Shown piece by piece: positions 116 to 53,824 of a DNA stretch of 64,000 bases. A program made the position numbers and the translations under genes. The notes below the pieces were generated by a model. That model was not told the DNA's origin. It did not search any database and was given only the letters and a program-made list of their open reading frames with translations. The stretch comes from a virus. Taxonomy: Duplodnaviria; Caudoviricetes. Each line of letters begins with the position of its first letter. The first letter of the stretch is position 1. The stretch lies in IMG/VR virus record IMGVR_UViG_3300032007_000017. The stretch is one strand, 5' to 3'.

Positions 116-1015
116 TTATACGAAGTCTAAATCTTCATCATATCCGCCATTAGAAATCTGCTGCTTTCTTTTATCTTCAGCAAGTTTTGTAAGAATGGAA
201 TTAATATCACTAAGTGCATTAAAGAATAGCTGATAATTAACTTCATTCTCAGTAGCGGTTTTAGTACTAAATGTGTAGATCAGATAATCGGATACCAGAT
301 CTGATAATTCTGCTAATTTATCAGAAGCGAATTCAATAGGCTTAATCATATTAATATCTTTAGGGATATTATTAATACGATCAATTACACTATTAATCGC
401 ATCGTAGAGCTTATTGTAATTCTTCTTAAGCTCCTGATTTCTAATAGCAAGCTGATCTGCAGAAAGATCCTGATTGATTTGATTCTCGAGATCCTGAATC
501 TGTCTATCCCAAACAGATTCCTGATCCATAGAATCTCCTTCCATACCAGATCCTTCAGTTCCATCATCAGACTCCCCATTATCAGGGCCAATATCTTGAG
601 CATCAGAATTGGAGTCATCAGTATAGTCTTCAGGAGCTCCTTCTCCTTCAGCTACTTCTGCTCCTCCTCCATTGTCTCCTCCCTGTTGCTGGGGTTCTTG
701 TTCTCCTTCTCCTCCATTATCGGGAGGCTGTTGATTTCCTTCTTCTCCTGTTTCTCCTTCCGGAGCATTGTCTCCTCCGTCGTCGGGAACAGTATAGTCC
801 TCAGGGGCTGCGTTGGGATCGTCGGTTCCTTCTCCTCCAGCTCCTTCTCCATCTTGATTACCAGAAGGACCAGAGTCGACACCCCCACTATCATCCCCAT
901 CAGCAGTATAATCAGTAGGAGCTTCATTGTCATTGTCATTATTCACTTCCTGTCCATTGACTTGAAGTTCTTGAAATAAGCGTTTCTTTTCTCCATTTGG
1001 AGTATAAAGGATCAT
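116..1015 (-). CDS. Very acidic late protein, possible head scaffold/core protein
   Basis: 299-aa ORF; D/E/G-rich N-terminal half with three AP(T/E)DYT repeats; helical C-terminus; late promoter 1040-1051; GGAG RBS. Confidence 0.75.
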   Translation of the reverse strand: MILYTPNGEKKRLFQELQVNGQEVNNDNDNEAPTDYTADGDDSGGVDSGPSGNQDGEGAGGEGTDDPNAAPEDYTVPDDGGDNAPEGETGEEGNQQPPDNGGEGEQEPQQQGGDNGGGAEVAEGEGAPEDYTDDSNSDAQDIGPDNGESDDGTEGSGMEGDSMDQESVWDRQIQDLENQINQDLSADQLAIRNQELKKNYNKLYDAINSVIDRINNIPKDINMIKPIEFASDKLAELSDLVSDYLIYTFSTKTATENEVNYQLFFNALSDINSILTKLAEDKRKQQISNGGYDEDLDFV

Positions 1016-1060
1016 TTATACAACTCTCCTTTCCTTAATTAATCGAATGTTGAGGGCATA

Positions 1061-1091
1061 AAATAGAGTAGGCTTAATGCCTACTCTATTT
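1061..1091. terminator. Intrinsic terminator hairpin
   Basis: AAATAGAGTAGGC-ttaat-GCCTACTCTATTT immediately after the 929-aa gene. Confidence 0.8.
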
Positions 1092-1093
1092 TG

Positions 1094-3883
1094 TTATTCT
1101 TCACTCATGATACCATCATTGGAGATTTTATCTTTACGATAGTATTTCTCTCCTTTGAGGTTCATATGATACTTTACTTTAGAACGTTGTCTTTCGAGAT
1201 TTCTTTGAATCTCATACAACTTTCTAAGAGCTTTCAAGTCATTCTTAGATTCTGCTGTGTCAATATATTTCTGACACATCTTCAGCTCGACATCGAGCTC
1301 ATCAAGAATCTGTTGACGTTGTTTCGACTGAAGTGCTTTAGTTCCTCCAATATAACCCAAAACTCCAATAACAGCAATTGCAGGGTCAATCAGAGCAGCG
1401 CCACCAGCCAGAATAGCTAGCTTAATAGTTTTAGAAGCACTAGGAATCAGAGATCCTTTGATAACAGCCTCACGATTATTTGACGTAAGAGCTCTCTCAG
1501 CAGACTTTCTAAAATTATTTGCCGCAACATCAATATTCTTACTGATAGTCTTGTCTTTATCAGAAAGCTTCTGTAAGCCTTTCTTGACTTTCTCAGAAGC
1601 AAGCTTCAAAGAATTCAAAACAGACGCTTCAGTAAGAGGAGTTTTATAGATTGCTGCATTATACATCTCAGTCAATCCCATAATAATCTGAAGTCTACCA
1701 GTAAGACGCATAGCCTCACTCATAATATCTTCAGTATTATGGCTCTGCGGGAACATAATGCCTAGCTTTCTATATACATTATCTATGTCATATTTGTCTG
1801 AATAATCAAGTTTAGTAACACCAATCTTAGCATCAGATTTCACATCACTGATAGCAAAAGACAGTGCATCTTTAGAAATGATTTCAGGACTAATACGACA
1901 GACATCGTATAGATCTGTTGCAATGGAAGGATTAGCCTCAATGATTGTATGGAGTTTAGCCTGATCAAAGGATTTAATATCCATATTATCATAAGCTTCA
2001 CTCAATGCAGACATGAGAGCTACATATTTAGCTGATTCTCCAAAGTCTTCAAGATCTCCAAAATCATCATCATTGAAATCGAAGTCTCCTAAATCAAAAT
2101 CTTTGAAGTCATCATCATCAATGTCAATGCTCCCAATAGAAGTATCATCGATGGGCTCATCTTCATCATACTTCTTATCGAGTTCTTCATCATTCAACAG
2201 AGTTTCATAATACTGATCAAGCTTTTGATAGGTATTATAAACCTCTTTTCTATACTCTTGAAGATTCTTTTTCTCTTCATCATTCTTACAGGATTCAATC
2301 TTCTTGTCAACTGCCTTGATTTCAGCTTTAAATGCATTACGTGCTTTAATAGCTTCTTCTCTAGACATATGCATTGCAAGAAGTTTATCTCCTAAGAATA
2401 CGATAGCACCTACTACTGGATGAATAGCAATTCCTCCAATAACAAAAACTCCACGAATATACTTTAACAGATCAGGAAGTTCTTCAACGGAGTTTTCAAT
2501 GCTACCAGCATAAAGCCTGTGAATCAAAGCTTTTAATTTATTTGGTTTATCTGCATCATCAGAAGTTTTGAATTTATTCATAATCTCCTGATAATCAACC
2601 TTCTCTTGAATGCTGACAGCTCCTCCAGGAGTGCTATCCATAATAGCACTAAAGGTAGTATCAGTTAAGAAAGATTCATTCTTAGCAGAATAGTATTTAC
2701 TGAATCGATTATCAGGACCGACATCGACACTCATACCATACTGCTTAATCTTCTTTTTGATATTTCGAGCAAGTTCAGCTTCATCTGCAGAATCGCAATG
2801 ATTAAACATTTGAATTGCAGATCTTACATGTGATTCATCAGGCATTGGATATTTTCTCTTGGAAGGAAGACCATAGTCTTTATCCGAAATAAATGCTCTT
2901 TGACGAGAAGTAAGTTTGGATTCATCCAGAGGATAATCATCATCAACCTCGTCATCATGAATTACATCGAGATCTCCATTATAGTCATTCTTATCGAAAA
3001 CTATAGATCCCTCGAGCATAGTTCTACAAGCAACACTATTTTCTCCAAGAGCCATGTAATAATCGGTAAGTGTAGTAACCAATTCAGATTCATCAAAAGT
3101 ATAAGCATTTCTATGAAGCCCATACCACATAGTCTCTAAACAGGTATTGAAGCGAGCTTTAAGAGGCATATCATATGTCTCAATTAACTTAGCAACTTCA
3201 ATCGCTGTATCAGAGATACCATTTATGATGGTATTCTCTTGAATGATTTTATCAATATTGAATCTCTTGGATACTCGGTTATAGTTCTCTAGAATCCTAT
3301 CGATTGATACAATCTTGGTAGCCTGCTCAAGCATACGCTCATATGCAGTAATTACAGCTTCCTGTTTAGCAGGACTACTATCAGGAGCAGGATTCTGAGG
3401 AGTTACAGATTGAACAAAACTTTTAGCAGGAGCTAGATTGGTTTGAAGGTTAGACTTAATATCATCAATAGATTTCTGAATCATATCAGTAATACTATTA
3501 AGATTCTTATTAACCAAGCTATTCTTGGCATTCATCTTTCCTTTAACTCTACCGAGCTTCTGCTTTAAATATGTTTGAGTCTCTTTGGCGTCTCTGGTTT
3601 TATTTACATACTCTTTGAGAATCAGATTACCATACTTATTGATCTGAGAAACAGTTCCATGTTCTGCCAGAGCATCAAAGAGATTATACATCGAAGATTC
3701 TGACATCGAATGGCTACTATCGCCAATAGCGCATTCAATACAAAAGATAATCTTAGAGGTAAAGCCTGATTGGATAGCTACTTCTGCTTGTTCATCAAAA
3801 GTATCTCTCCGCTTCAGATCTAAATTACCTTCTGGGATATTACGAATTCTGTTGCGTACATCTACTATACTCAACTGTTTCAT
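1094..3883 (-). CDS. Large virion/head protein with an inserted DUF6582-like domain
   Basis: 929 aa; LTSRQR..DKDYGLPSKRKYPMPDESHVRSAIQMF resembles the DUF6582 pattern; late promoter 3912-3923; GAGGTG/GAGG RBS. Confidence 0.75.
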   Translation of the reverse strand: MKQLSIVDVRNRIRNIPEGNLDLKRRDTFDEQAEVAIQSGFTSKIIFCIECAIGDSSHSMSESSMYNLFDALAEHGTVSQINKYGNLILKEYVNKTRDAKETQTYLKQKLGRVKGKMNAKNSLVNKNLNSITDMIQKSIDDIKSNLQTNLAPAKSFVQSVTPQNPAPDSSPAKQEAVITAYERMLEQATKIVSIDRILENYNRVSKRFNIDKIIQENTIINGISDTAIEVAKLIETYDMPLKARFNTCLETMWYGLHRNAYTFDESELVTTLTDYYMALGENSVACRTMLEGSIVFDKNDYNGDLDVIHDDEVDDDYPLDESKLTSRQRAFISDKDYGLPSKRKYPMPDESHVRSAIQMFNHCDSADEAELARNIKKKIKQYGMSVDVGPDNRFSKYYSAKNESFLTDTTFSAIMDSTPGGAVSIQEKVDYQEIMNKFKTSDDADKPNKLKALIHRLYAGSIENSVEELPDLLKYIRGVFVIGGIAIHPVVGAIVFLGDKLLAMHMSREEAIKARNAFKAEIKAVDKKIESCKNDEEKKNLQEYRKEVYNTYQKLDQYYETLLNDEELDKKYDEDEPIDDTSIGSIDIDDDDFKDFDLGDFDFNDDDFGDLEDFGESAKYVALMSALSEAYDNMDIKSFDQAKLHTIIEANPSIATDLYDVCRISPEIISKDALSFAISDVKSDAKIGVTKLDYSDKYDIDNVYRKLGIMFPQSHNTEDIMSEAMRLTGRLQIIMGLTEMYNAAIYKTPLTEASVLNSLKLASEKVKKGLQKLSDKDKTISKNIDVAANNFRKSAERALTSNNREAVIKGSLIPSASKTIKLAILAGGAALIDPAIAVIGVLGYIGGTKALQSKQRQQILDELDVELKMCQKYIDTAESKNDLKALRKLYEIQRNLERQRSKVKYHMNLKGEKYYRKDKISNDGIMSEE

Positions 3884-3940
3884 ATTCCCTCACCTCAAAA
3901 CTTAATGAGTTTATTAAATTGTTAAAGGTCTTATTAAATG

Positions 3941-4072
3941 CATACTCCCAGGGAAATTCCCTGGGAGTATGACTCGATCATAGGAGGTCCCCAAAAACAA
4001 TGTCTGCAAAGCCCGACACCCGCAGATATCTTATTTGAGTTTAACCAATGAGGCGAAATTCCATTGGCCTTT
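3941..4072 (-). ncRNA. Candidate late small RNA A (contains anti-SD)
   Basis: Own late promoter AACA-cttaag-TA (4083-4072); 5' hairpin GGCCAATG/CATTGGTT; AAATAAG; internal hairpin; GGACCTCCTATGATCGAGTCA; terminal hairpin 3941-3971; no ORF with an RBS on this strand; paralog at 56226-56391. Confidence 0.6.
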
Positions 4073-4139
4073 ACTTAAGTGTTATGCACAAACTTGTCAC
4101 ATATGAGAAAAAAAATAAAGTTATTTTATAGGGGTGGTG

Positions 4140-4341
4140 GGGAGGGTTGTACATTTCTGTACAACCCTCCCAGATGAGGTGACAAAGAAGGTGATGGCCA
4201 TCTCGAGAGAAGGAGAAACCCTGGATGGGGAAGATGCAAAATCATGTCAAATATAAACTACACCGTCAGCAGTTTTTCGACGATTTGACTATGAATACAA
4301 GCACCTATTGTACTCTCGAGACTTATTTACTTCTTCATCAC
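4140..4341 (-). ncRNA. Candidate early rod-shaped structured RNA
   Basis: Early motif TATATTAT at 4353-4346; nested stems GTGATGAAGAAG/CTTCTTTGTCAC, TCTCGAGAG/CTCTCGAGA and GTCAAAT/ATTTGAC; ends in hairpin 4140-4171; no ORF. Confidence 0.6.
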
Positions 4342-4385
4342 GATAATAATATATAATCAAAACTTGATTTAATTACGAAATTACA

Positions 4386-4411
4386 GATCCCTGAGGAAAA
4401 CCTCAGGGATC
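4386..4411 (-). terminator. Terminator of the prohead protease gene
   Basis: GATCCCTGAGG-aaaa-CCTCAGGGATC. Confidence 0.75.
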
Positions 4412-4423
4412 ATTATTATTTGC

Positions 4424-5269
4424 TTAGAATTTAGAGCAATAGTCCTCAATATCATTCTTGATATAAGACTCAAGATTGACATAGAACTTCTCACCATTCT
4501 TGGTACTAAGCATGACAGCAGTACCACCACGAACAAGTTGAATGGATTCATAGAATACCTCAAACTGTTCGATGATAGAACGGACGTTAGCAGACTCCTG
4601 CTTGATATAGCTCATAACTTCCTCATTCATAATGGGGATAATAGAGCTCTCAGTGACAATCTTCTTATCCTTCTTAGCCATAGCAGCTTCAAAGTAAGAA
4701 TTGAAAGACTTCTGAACACCAGCAGACTCTGTAACGAGTTTATGTGTATATGCTCCAGGATGAGAGGGGAAGATAACGAAGTCATGTGTAATGTACTTCA
4801 GATCTCTAACGAGATTTCTTCCACCAATCTGCTGAAGGGTACCAAGCGAACGCATAGAAAATGCAGGCTTGCAACCCTCAAGAAGATCCTTATTAACAGC
4901 TTCACCATAATCATTATTTGTTCCAGTATAGTGAGCCATCCACTTCGGACCATCCATCCAGAACTTTAGATAACGGACAGCAGTCTCTTTAGGATCGATC
5001 GTTTGCTGGCGAATAATAGAAGAATCCATCGGGTGACCAGCCTCACCGAGCATATAACCAGCGGCAAGCAGTTCTTTTGTACGAGCACAATTCTGCTCTC
5101 TGGTAAGATCAGCAGTCAGATAGCAACGACCATTGCGGTTCTCTTCCTCGCCTTCTTGAAGGCAAGCTTCGCCGATAGGCTTATTATTTGAGGTGCCAAC
5201 AATATGAGCATCACTAGCAGTGTAAGCATCCTCAAGAATGATATGTCCAATATTAATAGCGGCAGGCAT
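4424..5269 (-). CDS. Prohead (head maturation) serine protease, T4 gp21-like
   Basis: ENRNGRCY, catalytic His in GEAGHP, Ser in AFSMRSLG, Asp in ITHDFVIFPSHPGAY; AACT-N6-TA promoter 5296-5307. Confidence 0.9.
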   Translation of the reverse strand: MPAAINIGHIILEDAYTASDAHIVGTSNNKPIGEACLQEGEEENRNGRCYLTADLTREQNCARTKELLAAGYMLGEAGHPMDSSIIRQQTIDPKETAVRYLKFWMDGPKWMAHYTGTNNDYGEAVNKDLLEGCKPAFSMRSLGTLQQIGGRNLVRDLKYITHDFVIFPSHPGAYTHKLVTESAGVQKSFNSYFEAAMAKKDKKIVTESSIIPIMNEEVMSYIKQESANVRSIIEQFEVFYESIQLVRGGTAVMLSTKNGEKFYVNLESYIKNDIEDYCSKF

Positions 5270-6602: not shown

Positions 6603-6610
6603 TATATTAT
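6603..6610 (+). promoter_or_regulatory. Early-type promoter TATATTAT (example of about 10 sites)
   Basis: Same motif upstream of non-structural genes at 4346, 5325, 18850, 20682, 32779, 53734, 57884, 60120 and 62261; resembles phiKZ early TATATTAC. Confidence 0.7.
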
Positions 6611-6668
6611 TAAGATAGAAGATGGGTGTGATGGCCCATCAAATATTACATAAAGGAGAGACCCCACG

Positions 6669-6857
6669 ATGAAGAAAAAGTTCTTTAGCCCACTCGATAT
6701 GGCGGATGCCATGTTCAACCTTGGTTACACAAGAGAGGAGATCGAGGACAAGATCTCCTCAATGCTCGAAGACTCAATGGACATCTATGGGTTTCACGAG
6801 GAAACTCAGGAAACCCTTCAGCGTCAGCATGATGAGGCTATCCCTCCCGAGTGGTGA
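6669..6857 (+). CDS. Small acidic early protein
   Basis: 62 aa; TATATTAT at 6603-6610; leader hairpin 6621-6640; AAGGAG RBS; terminator 6860-6894. Confidence 0.8.
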   Translation: MKKKFFSPLDMADAMFNLGYTREEIEDKISSMLEDSMDIYGFHEETQETLQRQHDEAIPPEW

Positions 6858-53358: not shown

Positions 53359-53670
53359 TTAGGGATCGTGAGTTGGGTCAAATTCAAACCCGACAACGAC
53401 GTGAAAATCATCAAACCTGACGTATAACACTTGGTTCCGGAATACGATCTTGTAGCAGGTGTGATTGTCGGCGAATGCCTGATCTGTTTCTTTCGCGAAT
53501 CGCTCATGAATTGCGCTGATGTAGCTATCGGGTGTATATTCCAATCTTTCGATCCATGTGCTGGGGTCTGGCCTACCTTTTCTATAGCCGTAGCACTCTA
53601 CGGCTTTTGATGCATGGAGGATTTCCTTAACATAAGAATCCTTAACTTCAATATCAATGTTGCGCTTCAT
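53359..53670 (-). CDS. Early hypothetical protein
   Basis: 103 aa; AAGGAG RBS; CACATTAT motif 53741-53734; leader hairpin with GTGATGG loop. Confidence 0.75.
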   Translation of the reverse strand: MKRNIDIEVKDSYVKEILHASKAVECYGYRKGRPDPSTWIERLEYTPDSYISAIHERFAKETDQAFADNHTCYKIVFRNQVLYVRFDDFHVVVGFEFDPTHDP

Positions 53671-53824
53671 GGTATTATTCTCCTTTTAAATTTAAGATAT
53701 AAGAGGACCATCACTTCCTTCTTATTCATGATTATAATGTGTAACTGAAAATAGTGACTTTTACGGGTTCTTAGAAATCATCAACATTCAAATAATCTGT
53801 ATAAGATTGACTATACTCTAAAAA

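Follow-up and report, generated by a model that had tools for sequence, protein, structure and literature searches.

The window analyzed here is a stretch of 64,000 nucleotides, bases 41533 to 105532 of a 178-kb IMG/VR virus record with an estimated completeness of 72%. The phage is an uncultivated jumbo phage, AR9-like with its own multisubunit RNA polymerases (a phage RNA polymerase beta-like subunit is also encoded in the window), and its host is probably a Firmicute in the gut or rumen. On the minus strand, a T4-type prohead protease gene (4424-5269) and the gene of a 929-aa DUF6582 head-region protein (1094-3883) are separated by a 540-nt gene-free spacer, which contains the unit described here, a predicted rod-shaped RNA. 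The protease gene ends in an 11-bp terminator hairpin (4386 to 4411, minus strand) that was both called by the terminator scan and found by folding; it shields the rod unit from upstream transcription, in agreement with the insulation claimed by an earlier reading of the letters without database searches (the sequence-only reading). In genes upstream of the protease, group I intron matches (Rfam RF00028) were found in several relatives (L056:1452-1943, L007:2043-2546, L053:1705-1926 and L048:1-84), the one in L056 scoring 92.5 bits, above the gathering score.

Relatives of the protease number in the hundreds, and we compared the spacer from 14 of them. The region is hypervariable, ranging from 116 to ~1150 nt, and carries small ORFs that differ between phages (loci L007:4368-5214, L049:3356-4261, L051:3350-4468, L052, L053, L055 and L056). 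Among these ORFs are Cys-rich ones of 87 to 91 aa, one of 68 aa and one of 88 aa behind an early promoter, as well as, in L051 and L052, a Tad8-family (PF25189) ORF that runs on the opposite strand. Adjoining the rod is a second, late-promoter unit, "RNA A" (3941-4083, minus strand), conserved in the spacer of every relative examined (L048, L007, L049, L051-L056, L004 and L008), with the layout AAC(A/T)-N6-TA(A/G), a 5' hairpin, (A)AACCUCC(U/A)A, which is a perfect anti-Shine-Dalgarno (anti-SD) sequence, and a strong hairpin. A separate late promoter, AACA-ATTTAA-TA, and a short leader (3884-3925, minus strand) precede the 929-aa gene.

In AR9, a Bacillus jumbo phage, early promoters have the form AAATATATATTAT-6N-G and late promoters the form AACA-6N-TA/G (PMC5312081), and the window contains promoters of both kinds. 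The rod unit is preceded by an early promoter of the virion RNA polymerase type (4340 to 4355, minus strand) that fits the AR9 consensus (PMC5312081), with TATATATTAT (4355-4346) as the end of the AT-rich consensus, the six nucleotides TATCGT and a G at +1. The predicted start, G4339, is the first base of the closing stem, as it also is in the relative L048, where the promoter is unchanged (TTGTATATTATTATC). As for the early motif put forward by the sequence-only reading, the 8-mer TATATTAT by itself shows no enrichment in the window (12 copies versus 8.9 expected), but the extended form is enriched between genes: 43 of the 124 near-matches to ATATTATTAT are intergenic, while intergenic sequence makes up 9% of the genome, and the strict form ATATTAT-N5-T-G has 36 sites in the genome, mostly directly upstream of ribosome-binding sites. 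ATATTAT-N5-T-G is a genuine class of promoters, of which the copy at the rod is a typical member. The same reading had taken AAAUAAG as a motif linking candidate RNAs; the heptamer is underrepresented in the window (11 copies versus 20 expected) and not exactly preserved in L048, where CAAUAAAG stands in its place. Three of the 11 AAATAAG copies in the window lie in candidate small RNAs.

Folding of the whole stretch (4140-4353, minus strand) gave a minimum free energy (MFE) of -78.7 kcal/mol, far better than that of shuffled sequences (-46.4 ± 4.4 kcal/mol; z = -7.4; 0 of 200 shuffles as good), and without the 3' hairpin (4178-4339) the z score was still -4.4. Both strands fold well, the plus strand more weakly (-72.3 versus -78.7 kcal/mol). 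All the helices listed beforehand are present in the MFE structure, which also includes a large asymmetric pyrimidine-rich bubble and three apical stems. The closing stem, P1, had been given as 12 bp; it is indeed present in the fold, but only 10 bp lie within the RNA, because the AR9 rule places the start of the transcript at G4339. Its 5' strand, GAUGAAGAAG (4330-4339), is thus the 5' end of the RNA and is supported by the fold and by covariation with L048. The 3' strand, CUUCUUUGUC (4181-4190), rests on the fold and the comparison of pairs with L048 and forms two G.U pairs, for which reason the RNA is assigned to the minus strand. Next comes an internal loop whose 5' side, UAAAUAAG (4322-4329), lies opposite UGGCCAUCA and reads CAAAUAAG in L047 and ACAAUAAAG in L048. 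The second stem, P2, is made by UCUCGAGAG (4313-4321) and CUCUCGAGA (4201-4209); here L048 has CUCUUGG/CCAAGAG, so that the pairing is kept. Above it lies a variable apical domain (4231-4312) with the stems GGUGC/GCAUC, UCAU/AUGA and GUCAAAU/AUUUGAC and the apical hairpin.

Three stretches of the 3' half are unpaired in the fold. The first segment (seg1), CAUCCAGGGUUUCUCCUU (4210-4227), has a core, CCAGGGUUUCUCC (4224-4212), that is identical in L048. The second (seg2), GGCCAUCACC (4190-4199), forms the 3' side of the internal loop, is also identical in L048 and costs only 0.2 kcal/mol to open. The third is a single-stranded, anti-SD-like linker, CACCUCAUCU (4172-4181), of which CACCUCA is conserved. 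Part of this linker region, UCACCUCA (4182-4175), is the exact complement of the SD sequence of the 929-aa gene, UGAGGUGA; L048 keeps only 6 nt of the match. The unit closes with a 14-bp GC-rich hairpin (4140-4171), which had been called terminator-like: the hairpin is there, but it lacks a U tail and the terminator scan did not report it, and a run of eight U residues follows ~20 nt farther on (4115-4108). A hairpin of unrelated sequence occupies the same place in L048. In our model, this element may be either a terminator for the phage RNA polymerase or a protective 3' stem.

The closest relative, L047, has a protease 99% identical to that of the window and a spacer 98% identical, with all the differences in the first half of the spacer. 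Seven of them fall in the rod unit, six at unpaired positions and one changing a G-C pair to G.U; counted over the rod half of the spacer there are ten, and RNA A has none. The relative L048 was compared over the first 5,120 nt of its contig. Its protease is 88% identical, with third codon positions ~60% identical (63% within identical amino acids), and its spacer shows no blastn similarity to that of the window. Despite this, L048 has the same rod. In P1, 10 of 12 pairs are kept, with three double and three one-sided changes, and P2 is rebuilt from different sequence, so that both main stems are restored by compensatory changes. The unpaired CCAGGGUUUCUCC (13 of 13 positions), GGCCAUCACC (10 of 10) and CACCUCA are identical. 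The apical domain, ~100 nt in the window, is replaced by ~55 nt of unrelated sequence, the 3' hairpin is likewise unrelated in sequence, and the L048 rod folds with a z score of -3.3. Due to the difference in apical length, MAFFT/RNAalifold of the three rods misaligned the 5' strand of P2, and pairs were instead tabulated by script. The data contain only two independent rod lineages.

The window and L048 rods share no ORF, and their conserved blocks stand in different reading frames. A small protein-coding gene was therefore rejected, since the conserved blocks shift frame and L048 has no start codon. What the sequence-only reading had described, an ORF-free and strongly folding unit behind an early-type promoter, holds in all three respects (no conserved ORF, z = -7.4, fit to the AR9 consensus). 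Covarying stems, frozen loops and G.U pairs on one strand make up the pattern of a functional RNA, unlike that of a protein gene or a DNA repeat. We regard the rod with high confidence as a functional, conserved noncoding element, and we think it likely that this element acts as RNA; that the RNA is made from the early promoter is, as far as the promoter sequence indicates, very probable. The alternative that the locus works at the DNA level, as a cruciform, origin, packaging or recombination site, or is the decaying remnant of an inserted cassette without any RNA function, draws on the spacer being a hot spot with different content in every relative and on the good folding of both strands. 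However, the G.U pairs and the G-C to G.U change fit only an RNA of the minus strand, both lineages have a consensus promoter placed precisely at the foot of the closing stem, the unpaired stretches show purifying selection against a background of covarying stems, and the genome holds no other copy, all of which makes this explanation very improbable.

Similarity searches placed the rod in no known family. A cmscan against Rfam of positions 3500 to 5000 on both strands returned no family matching the rod and listed no 6S family even at an E value of ≤10; when seven related loci were searched in this way, their spacer RNAs had no match either. The P1/P7 c4 antisense RNA (RF01695) was likewise discarded for lack of an Rfam match. 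With blastn, the phage collection yielded no match, and the set of all relative loci compared yielded only the near-identical L047. The pattern CCAGGGTTTCTCC..GGCCATCACC was absent from the viral contig collection, and four matches in genome contigs were set aside as unrelated, as all lay inside ORFs of GC-rich MAGs. No paralogue of the rod or its motifs was found in its own genome.

These results bear on the proposal, made from the sequence alone, of a 6S-like architecture and a polymerase decoy. On such a reading the rod would mimic open-promoter DNA and sequester host or phage RNA polymerase. The outline does recall 6S RNA (RF00013 and relatives): the length is ~200 nt, the two ends meet in the closing stem, bubbles interrupt an irregular rod, and the expression class is early. 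On the other hand, none of the Rfam 6S models matches, and a central bubble conserved on both of its strands between conserved helices is missing. Of the loops, only the 3' sides have been kept; the 5' side of the large bubble and the apical half have nothing in common in the two lineages, and the stretches that are conserved find a specific complement in an mRNA (see below). The decoy is thus scarcely credible, and the finding has no bearing on 6S biology.

To search for partners, the two segments, defined from the comparison with L048 before any target was scored, were hybridized with RNAduplex to positions -70 to +15 of all 160 called genes in the 178-kb genome, and the scoring was made without reference to any particular gene. 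Both ranked the same gene first of 160, an early gene at 6669 to 6857 on the plus strand. The duplex energy was -23.7 kcal/mol for seg1 (4227-4210; mean, -11.5; standard deviation [SD of energies], 3.0; next best, -19.6) and -20.9 kcal/mol for seg2 (4203-4188; mean, -9.3; standard deviation, 3.3), and the sum was -44.6 kcal/mol, with -31.3 for the gene ranked second. With 300 shuffled pairs of segments, no gene gave a sum as low as -44.6 (minima averaging -28.9 with a standard deviation of 2.3; lowest, -36.7). The complementarity of the rod loops to the start region of gene 6669 exceeds chance. In these duplexes, GGCCAUCAC of seg2 binds in the loop of a hairpin in the leader, where GUGAUGGCC (6628-6636), made up of the loop and the first bases of the stem, is the exact complement of seg2, while GGGUUUCUCCUU of seg1 pairs with the SD sequence AAGGAGAGACCC (6653-6664) and CAUC with GAUG at the start codon, giving 12 contiguous pairs plus 4. 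The predicted seeds are CCAUCAC and GGUUUCUCC in the rod, and their sites are GUGAUGG and GGAGAGACC in the leader. The sites are antiparallel and collinear in the two RNAs, and with opening costs of 0.2 (seg2), 4.1 (seg1), 1.5 (SD) and 2.6 to 6.4 kcal/mol (loop) the net energies stay clearly favorable.

The three C/U-rich unpaired stretches of the rod (UUUCUCC, AUCACCUUCUUU and CACCUCA) also suggest a less specific role, that of a general anti-SD sponge or mimic of the 16S rRNA 3' tail titrating purine-rich ribosome-binding sites across many mRNAs of host or phage. The 3' end of Firmicute 16S rRNA is GGAUCACCUCCUUUCU, which GGCCAUCACCUUCUUU in the rod resembles; the neighboring late RNA has a perfect ACCUCC; and seg1 is conserved in L048 although its match to the orthologue of gene 6669 is weak there. 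Against a sponge, duplex energies averaged over the 160 start regions are unexceptional (means of -9 to -11.5 kcal/mol), a single gene stands clearly apart with both segments, and the part resembling the 16S tail lies mostly within paired P1, where it covaries instead of staying the same. Genes with an early promoter show no shift in these energies and were, as a class, not better segment partners (Mann-Whitney p of 0.07, 0.69 and 0.42). We consider the sponge quite unlikely. The retention of seg1 in L048 despite the weak SD match does suggest another or additional partner; such a partner probably exists and may lie in the host or the remaining 28% of the genome. No perfect 13-nt complement of seg1 was found elsewhere in the 178 kb.

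The predicted target lies 2.3 kb from the rod unit on the opposite strand. It has an early promoter (ATATTAT plus 6 nt, 6604-6616, plus strand; +1 at A6617) that is conserved in L048, L061 and L062. This promoter is followed by the leader hairpin GAUGGG-UGUGAUGG-CCCAUC (6621-6640), whose stem covaries and whose loop is identical in L048, and by the SD sequence and start codon (6653-6671) complementary to seg1. The product is a 62-aa acidic, soluble protein (pI 4.4; GRAVY, -0.85) without hydrophobic segments; it had no family match and only two close relatives among 5.8 billion proteins. The earlier suggestion of an antitoxin mimic or sponge came nearer to this picture than the 6S decoy, but with these properties the target does not resemble a type I toxin, and a type I toxin-antitoxin pair was rejected. 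In L063, the 62-aa gene (97% identical to that of the window) is closely followed by a 406-aa ORF of the IS605 OrfB/Cas12f-like (TnpB) type (706-1926, minus strand), and the corresponding region of the window holds RNA polymerase exons and introns.

The orthologue in L048 (58 aa) also has an early promoter and a leader hairpin, AUGGUGA-UGUGAUGG-UCGCCAU, in which the stem is another and the loop the same. The seg2 duplex there again reaches -20.9 kcal/mol, and the seg1/SD duplex is ordinary (-13.5 kcal/mol versus a background of -11.7). In L061, whose protein is 80% identical, 70 nt of the leader are identical, compared with 152 of 189 positions in the coding sequence, and the L062 leader has a single stem change, from G-C to G.U. 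The loop of the leader hairpin is thus conserved in L048 and two further lineages; the pairs predicted between rod and leader are conserved, and none covaries. Two other early leaders in the genome have loops of the type (A/U)GUGAUGG, making at least three early leaders in all, while four relatives without a rod, searched whole, had none or one such site each. Genes with an early promoter are four of the five best partners of seg2, versus 17% of all genes. Two early leaders, at 53670-53727 (minus strand) and at G000:C1:174742 of the genome (plus strand), are near-copies of each other (GAAUA(A)GA..GG-AGUGAUGG-..CCUCU(U)AUAUCUUAAAUUUAAA(A)GGAG), and both form a hairpin with the loop AGUGAUGG, the loop core of the gene 6669 leader.

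Recurrent loops of this kind could also be read as the mark of a protein. The rod would then be a structured RNA that binds proteins or works in some other way without base pairing, for instance as a scaffold or decoy for an RNA-binding protein or nuclease from phage or host, and its complementarity to the leader would come from related protein-recognition motifs in both RNAs. This would suit the conserved loops within a conserved scaffold, the GUGAUGG-type loops in at least three early leaders and an invariant hairpin resembling a protein handle, UGGC-GUAGUUUAU-GCCA, in the RNA that distant relatives carry in the same slot. Nevertheless, the two motifs are complementary rather than alike, and two separate segments match the same mRNA in the right order, which leaves a protein-centered function unlikely. 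Conserved unpaired stretches complementary to the leader and ribosome-binding site of a single early mRNA are the signature of a base-pairing small RNA.

The RNA of these relatives, at 70 to 78% protease identity, is a different RNA-like unit ("unit 1"; L007, L049, L051-L053 and L055) that occupies the position of the rod, with the terminator of the protease gene on one side and the late RNA A on the other. Unit 1 resembles the rod in its early-type promoter, its rod-like 5' domain and the GC hairpin on its 3' side, and it shares with the window GGUGUAGUUUAU (4265-4254 in the apical domain) and two further short collinear motifs. It differs in that its invariant hairpin stands right before a canonical terminator and in lacking CCAGGGUUUCUCC and GGCCAUCACC, and blastn found no similarity between the rod and the unit 1 RNAs. 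A common origin of the two is possible, as suggested by the retained GGUGUAGUUUAU and collinear motifs. No target for the GUAGUUUAU loop was detected in the few kilobases of those relatives.

Taken together, the rod has features expected of a base-pairing small RNA. It has a promoter of its own, lacks an ORF and carries a defined structure on its 3' side (a hairpin in both lineages, with no U tail); its seeds are conserved and accessible in a scaffold that tolerates compensatory change, and its complementarity to one start region is beyond chance, with both segments ranking the same gene first of 160. Our main reading, to which we give a probability of roughly 0.5, is that of a two-site antisense small RNA that would repress an early phage mRNA by a kissing loop and by occlusion of the SD sequence and AUG. 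The region from 4339 to ~4140 on the minus strand would be transcribed early in infection, from the AR9-type promoter of the virion RNA polymerase, into a noncoding small RNA of ~170 to 200 nt, in which the scaffold of P1, P2 and the variable apical domain would keep the two short conserved sequences single stranded. GGCCAUCAC would meet the leader hairpin of gene 6669 at its 8-nt loop, in a loop-loop ("kissing") interaction, and GGGUUUCUCCUU together with CAUC would cover the SD sequence and the AUG. Ribosome binding would thereby be blocked and the 62-aa early protein limited or shut off; other early leaders with a GUGAUGG loop might be affected too. We infer transcription, the 3' end, pairing in vivo and the direction of the effect. 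Against this reading, small RNA and target would both appear early, and a regulatory logic such as a threshold or a delayed shutoff is conjecture. A broader scheme, which we hold to be doubtful, would make the rod RNA the hub of a phage-internal posttranscriptional regulon, in which the CCAUCAC internal loop reads a "loop code," (A/U)GUGAUGG, and early mRNAs are shut off together, the same-slot RNAs of relatives (e.g., that with the loop GUAGUUUAU) being alternative specificities that coevolve with their own leaders.

The OxyS RNA of Escherichia coli, encoded in trans, represses fhlA by kissing at two sites. The rod would resemble this system in being a structured RNA with two accessible sequences for two separated sites on one mRNA, one of them the ribosome-binding site, through loop-loop contacts. 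It differs in being phage encoded, in its early promoter for the virion RNA polymerase and in making one contact from an internal loop; the two RNAs have no relation in sequence, and the pairing of the rod is a prediction. The antisense RNAs of phages P1/P7 (c4) and P4 (CI) are also phage small RNAs; with two short complementary segments they block, in trans, the region of a phage gene where ribosomes bind. However, they are ~77 nt long, are processed from an operon transcript and control the immunity of temperate elements, whereas the rod RNA would be of ~170 to 200 nt, from its own promoter, in a jumbo phage of virulent type. To our knowledge, very little is known of regulatory RNAs in virulent phages, and this applies above all to jumbo phages with their own multisubunit RNA polymerases. 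Transcriptomics has revealed small RNAs of lytic phages, among them putative ones in Pseudomonas phages and an ICP1 RNA regulating phage and satellite genes (cited in PMC10884466). The rod RNA would resemble these in acting in trans on transcripts of a lytic phage, while it comes from the AR9-like group, has no relation to them in sequence or structure and is only predicted. For AR9 itself, the transcriptomics paper reports promoters and antisense RNAs, and a term search of it found no mention of "noncoding" (PMC5312081). If the model holds, the rod would be an early phage small RNA controlling an early phage gene through a kissing loop and SD occlusion, a concrete case with a defined 5' end, two seeds and one named target, and the spacer between the protease and head genes would be, in this phage group, a slot for fast-evolving RNA genes.
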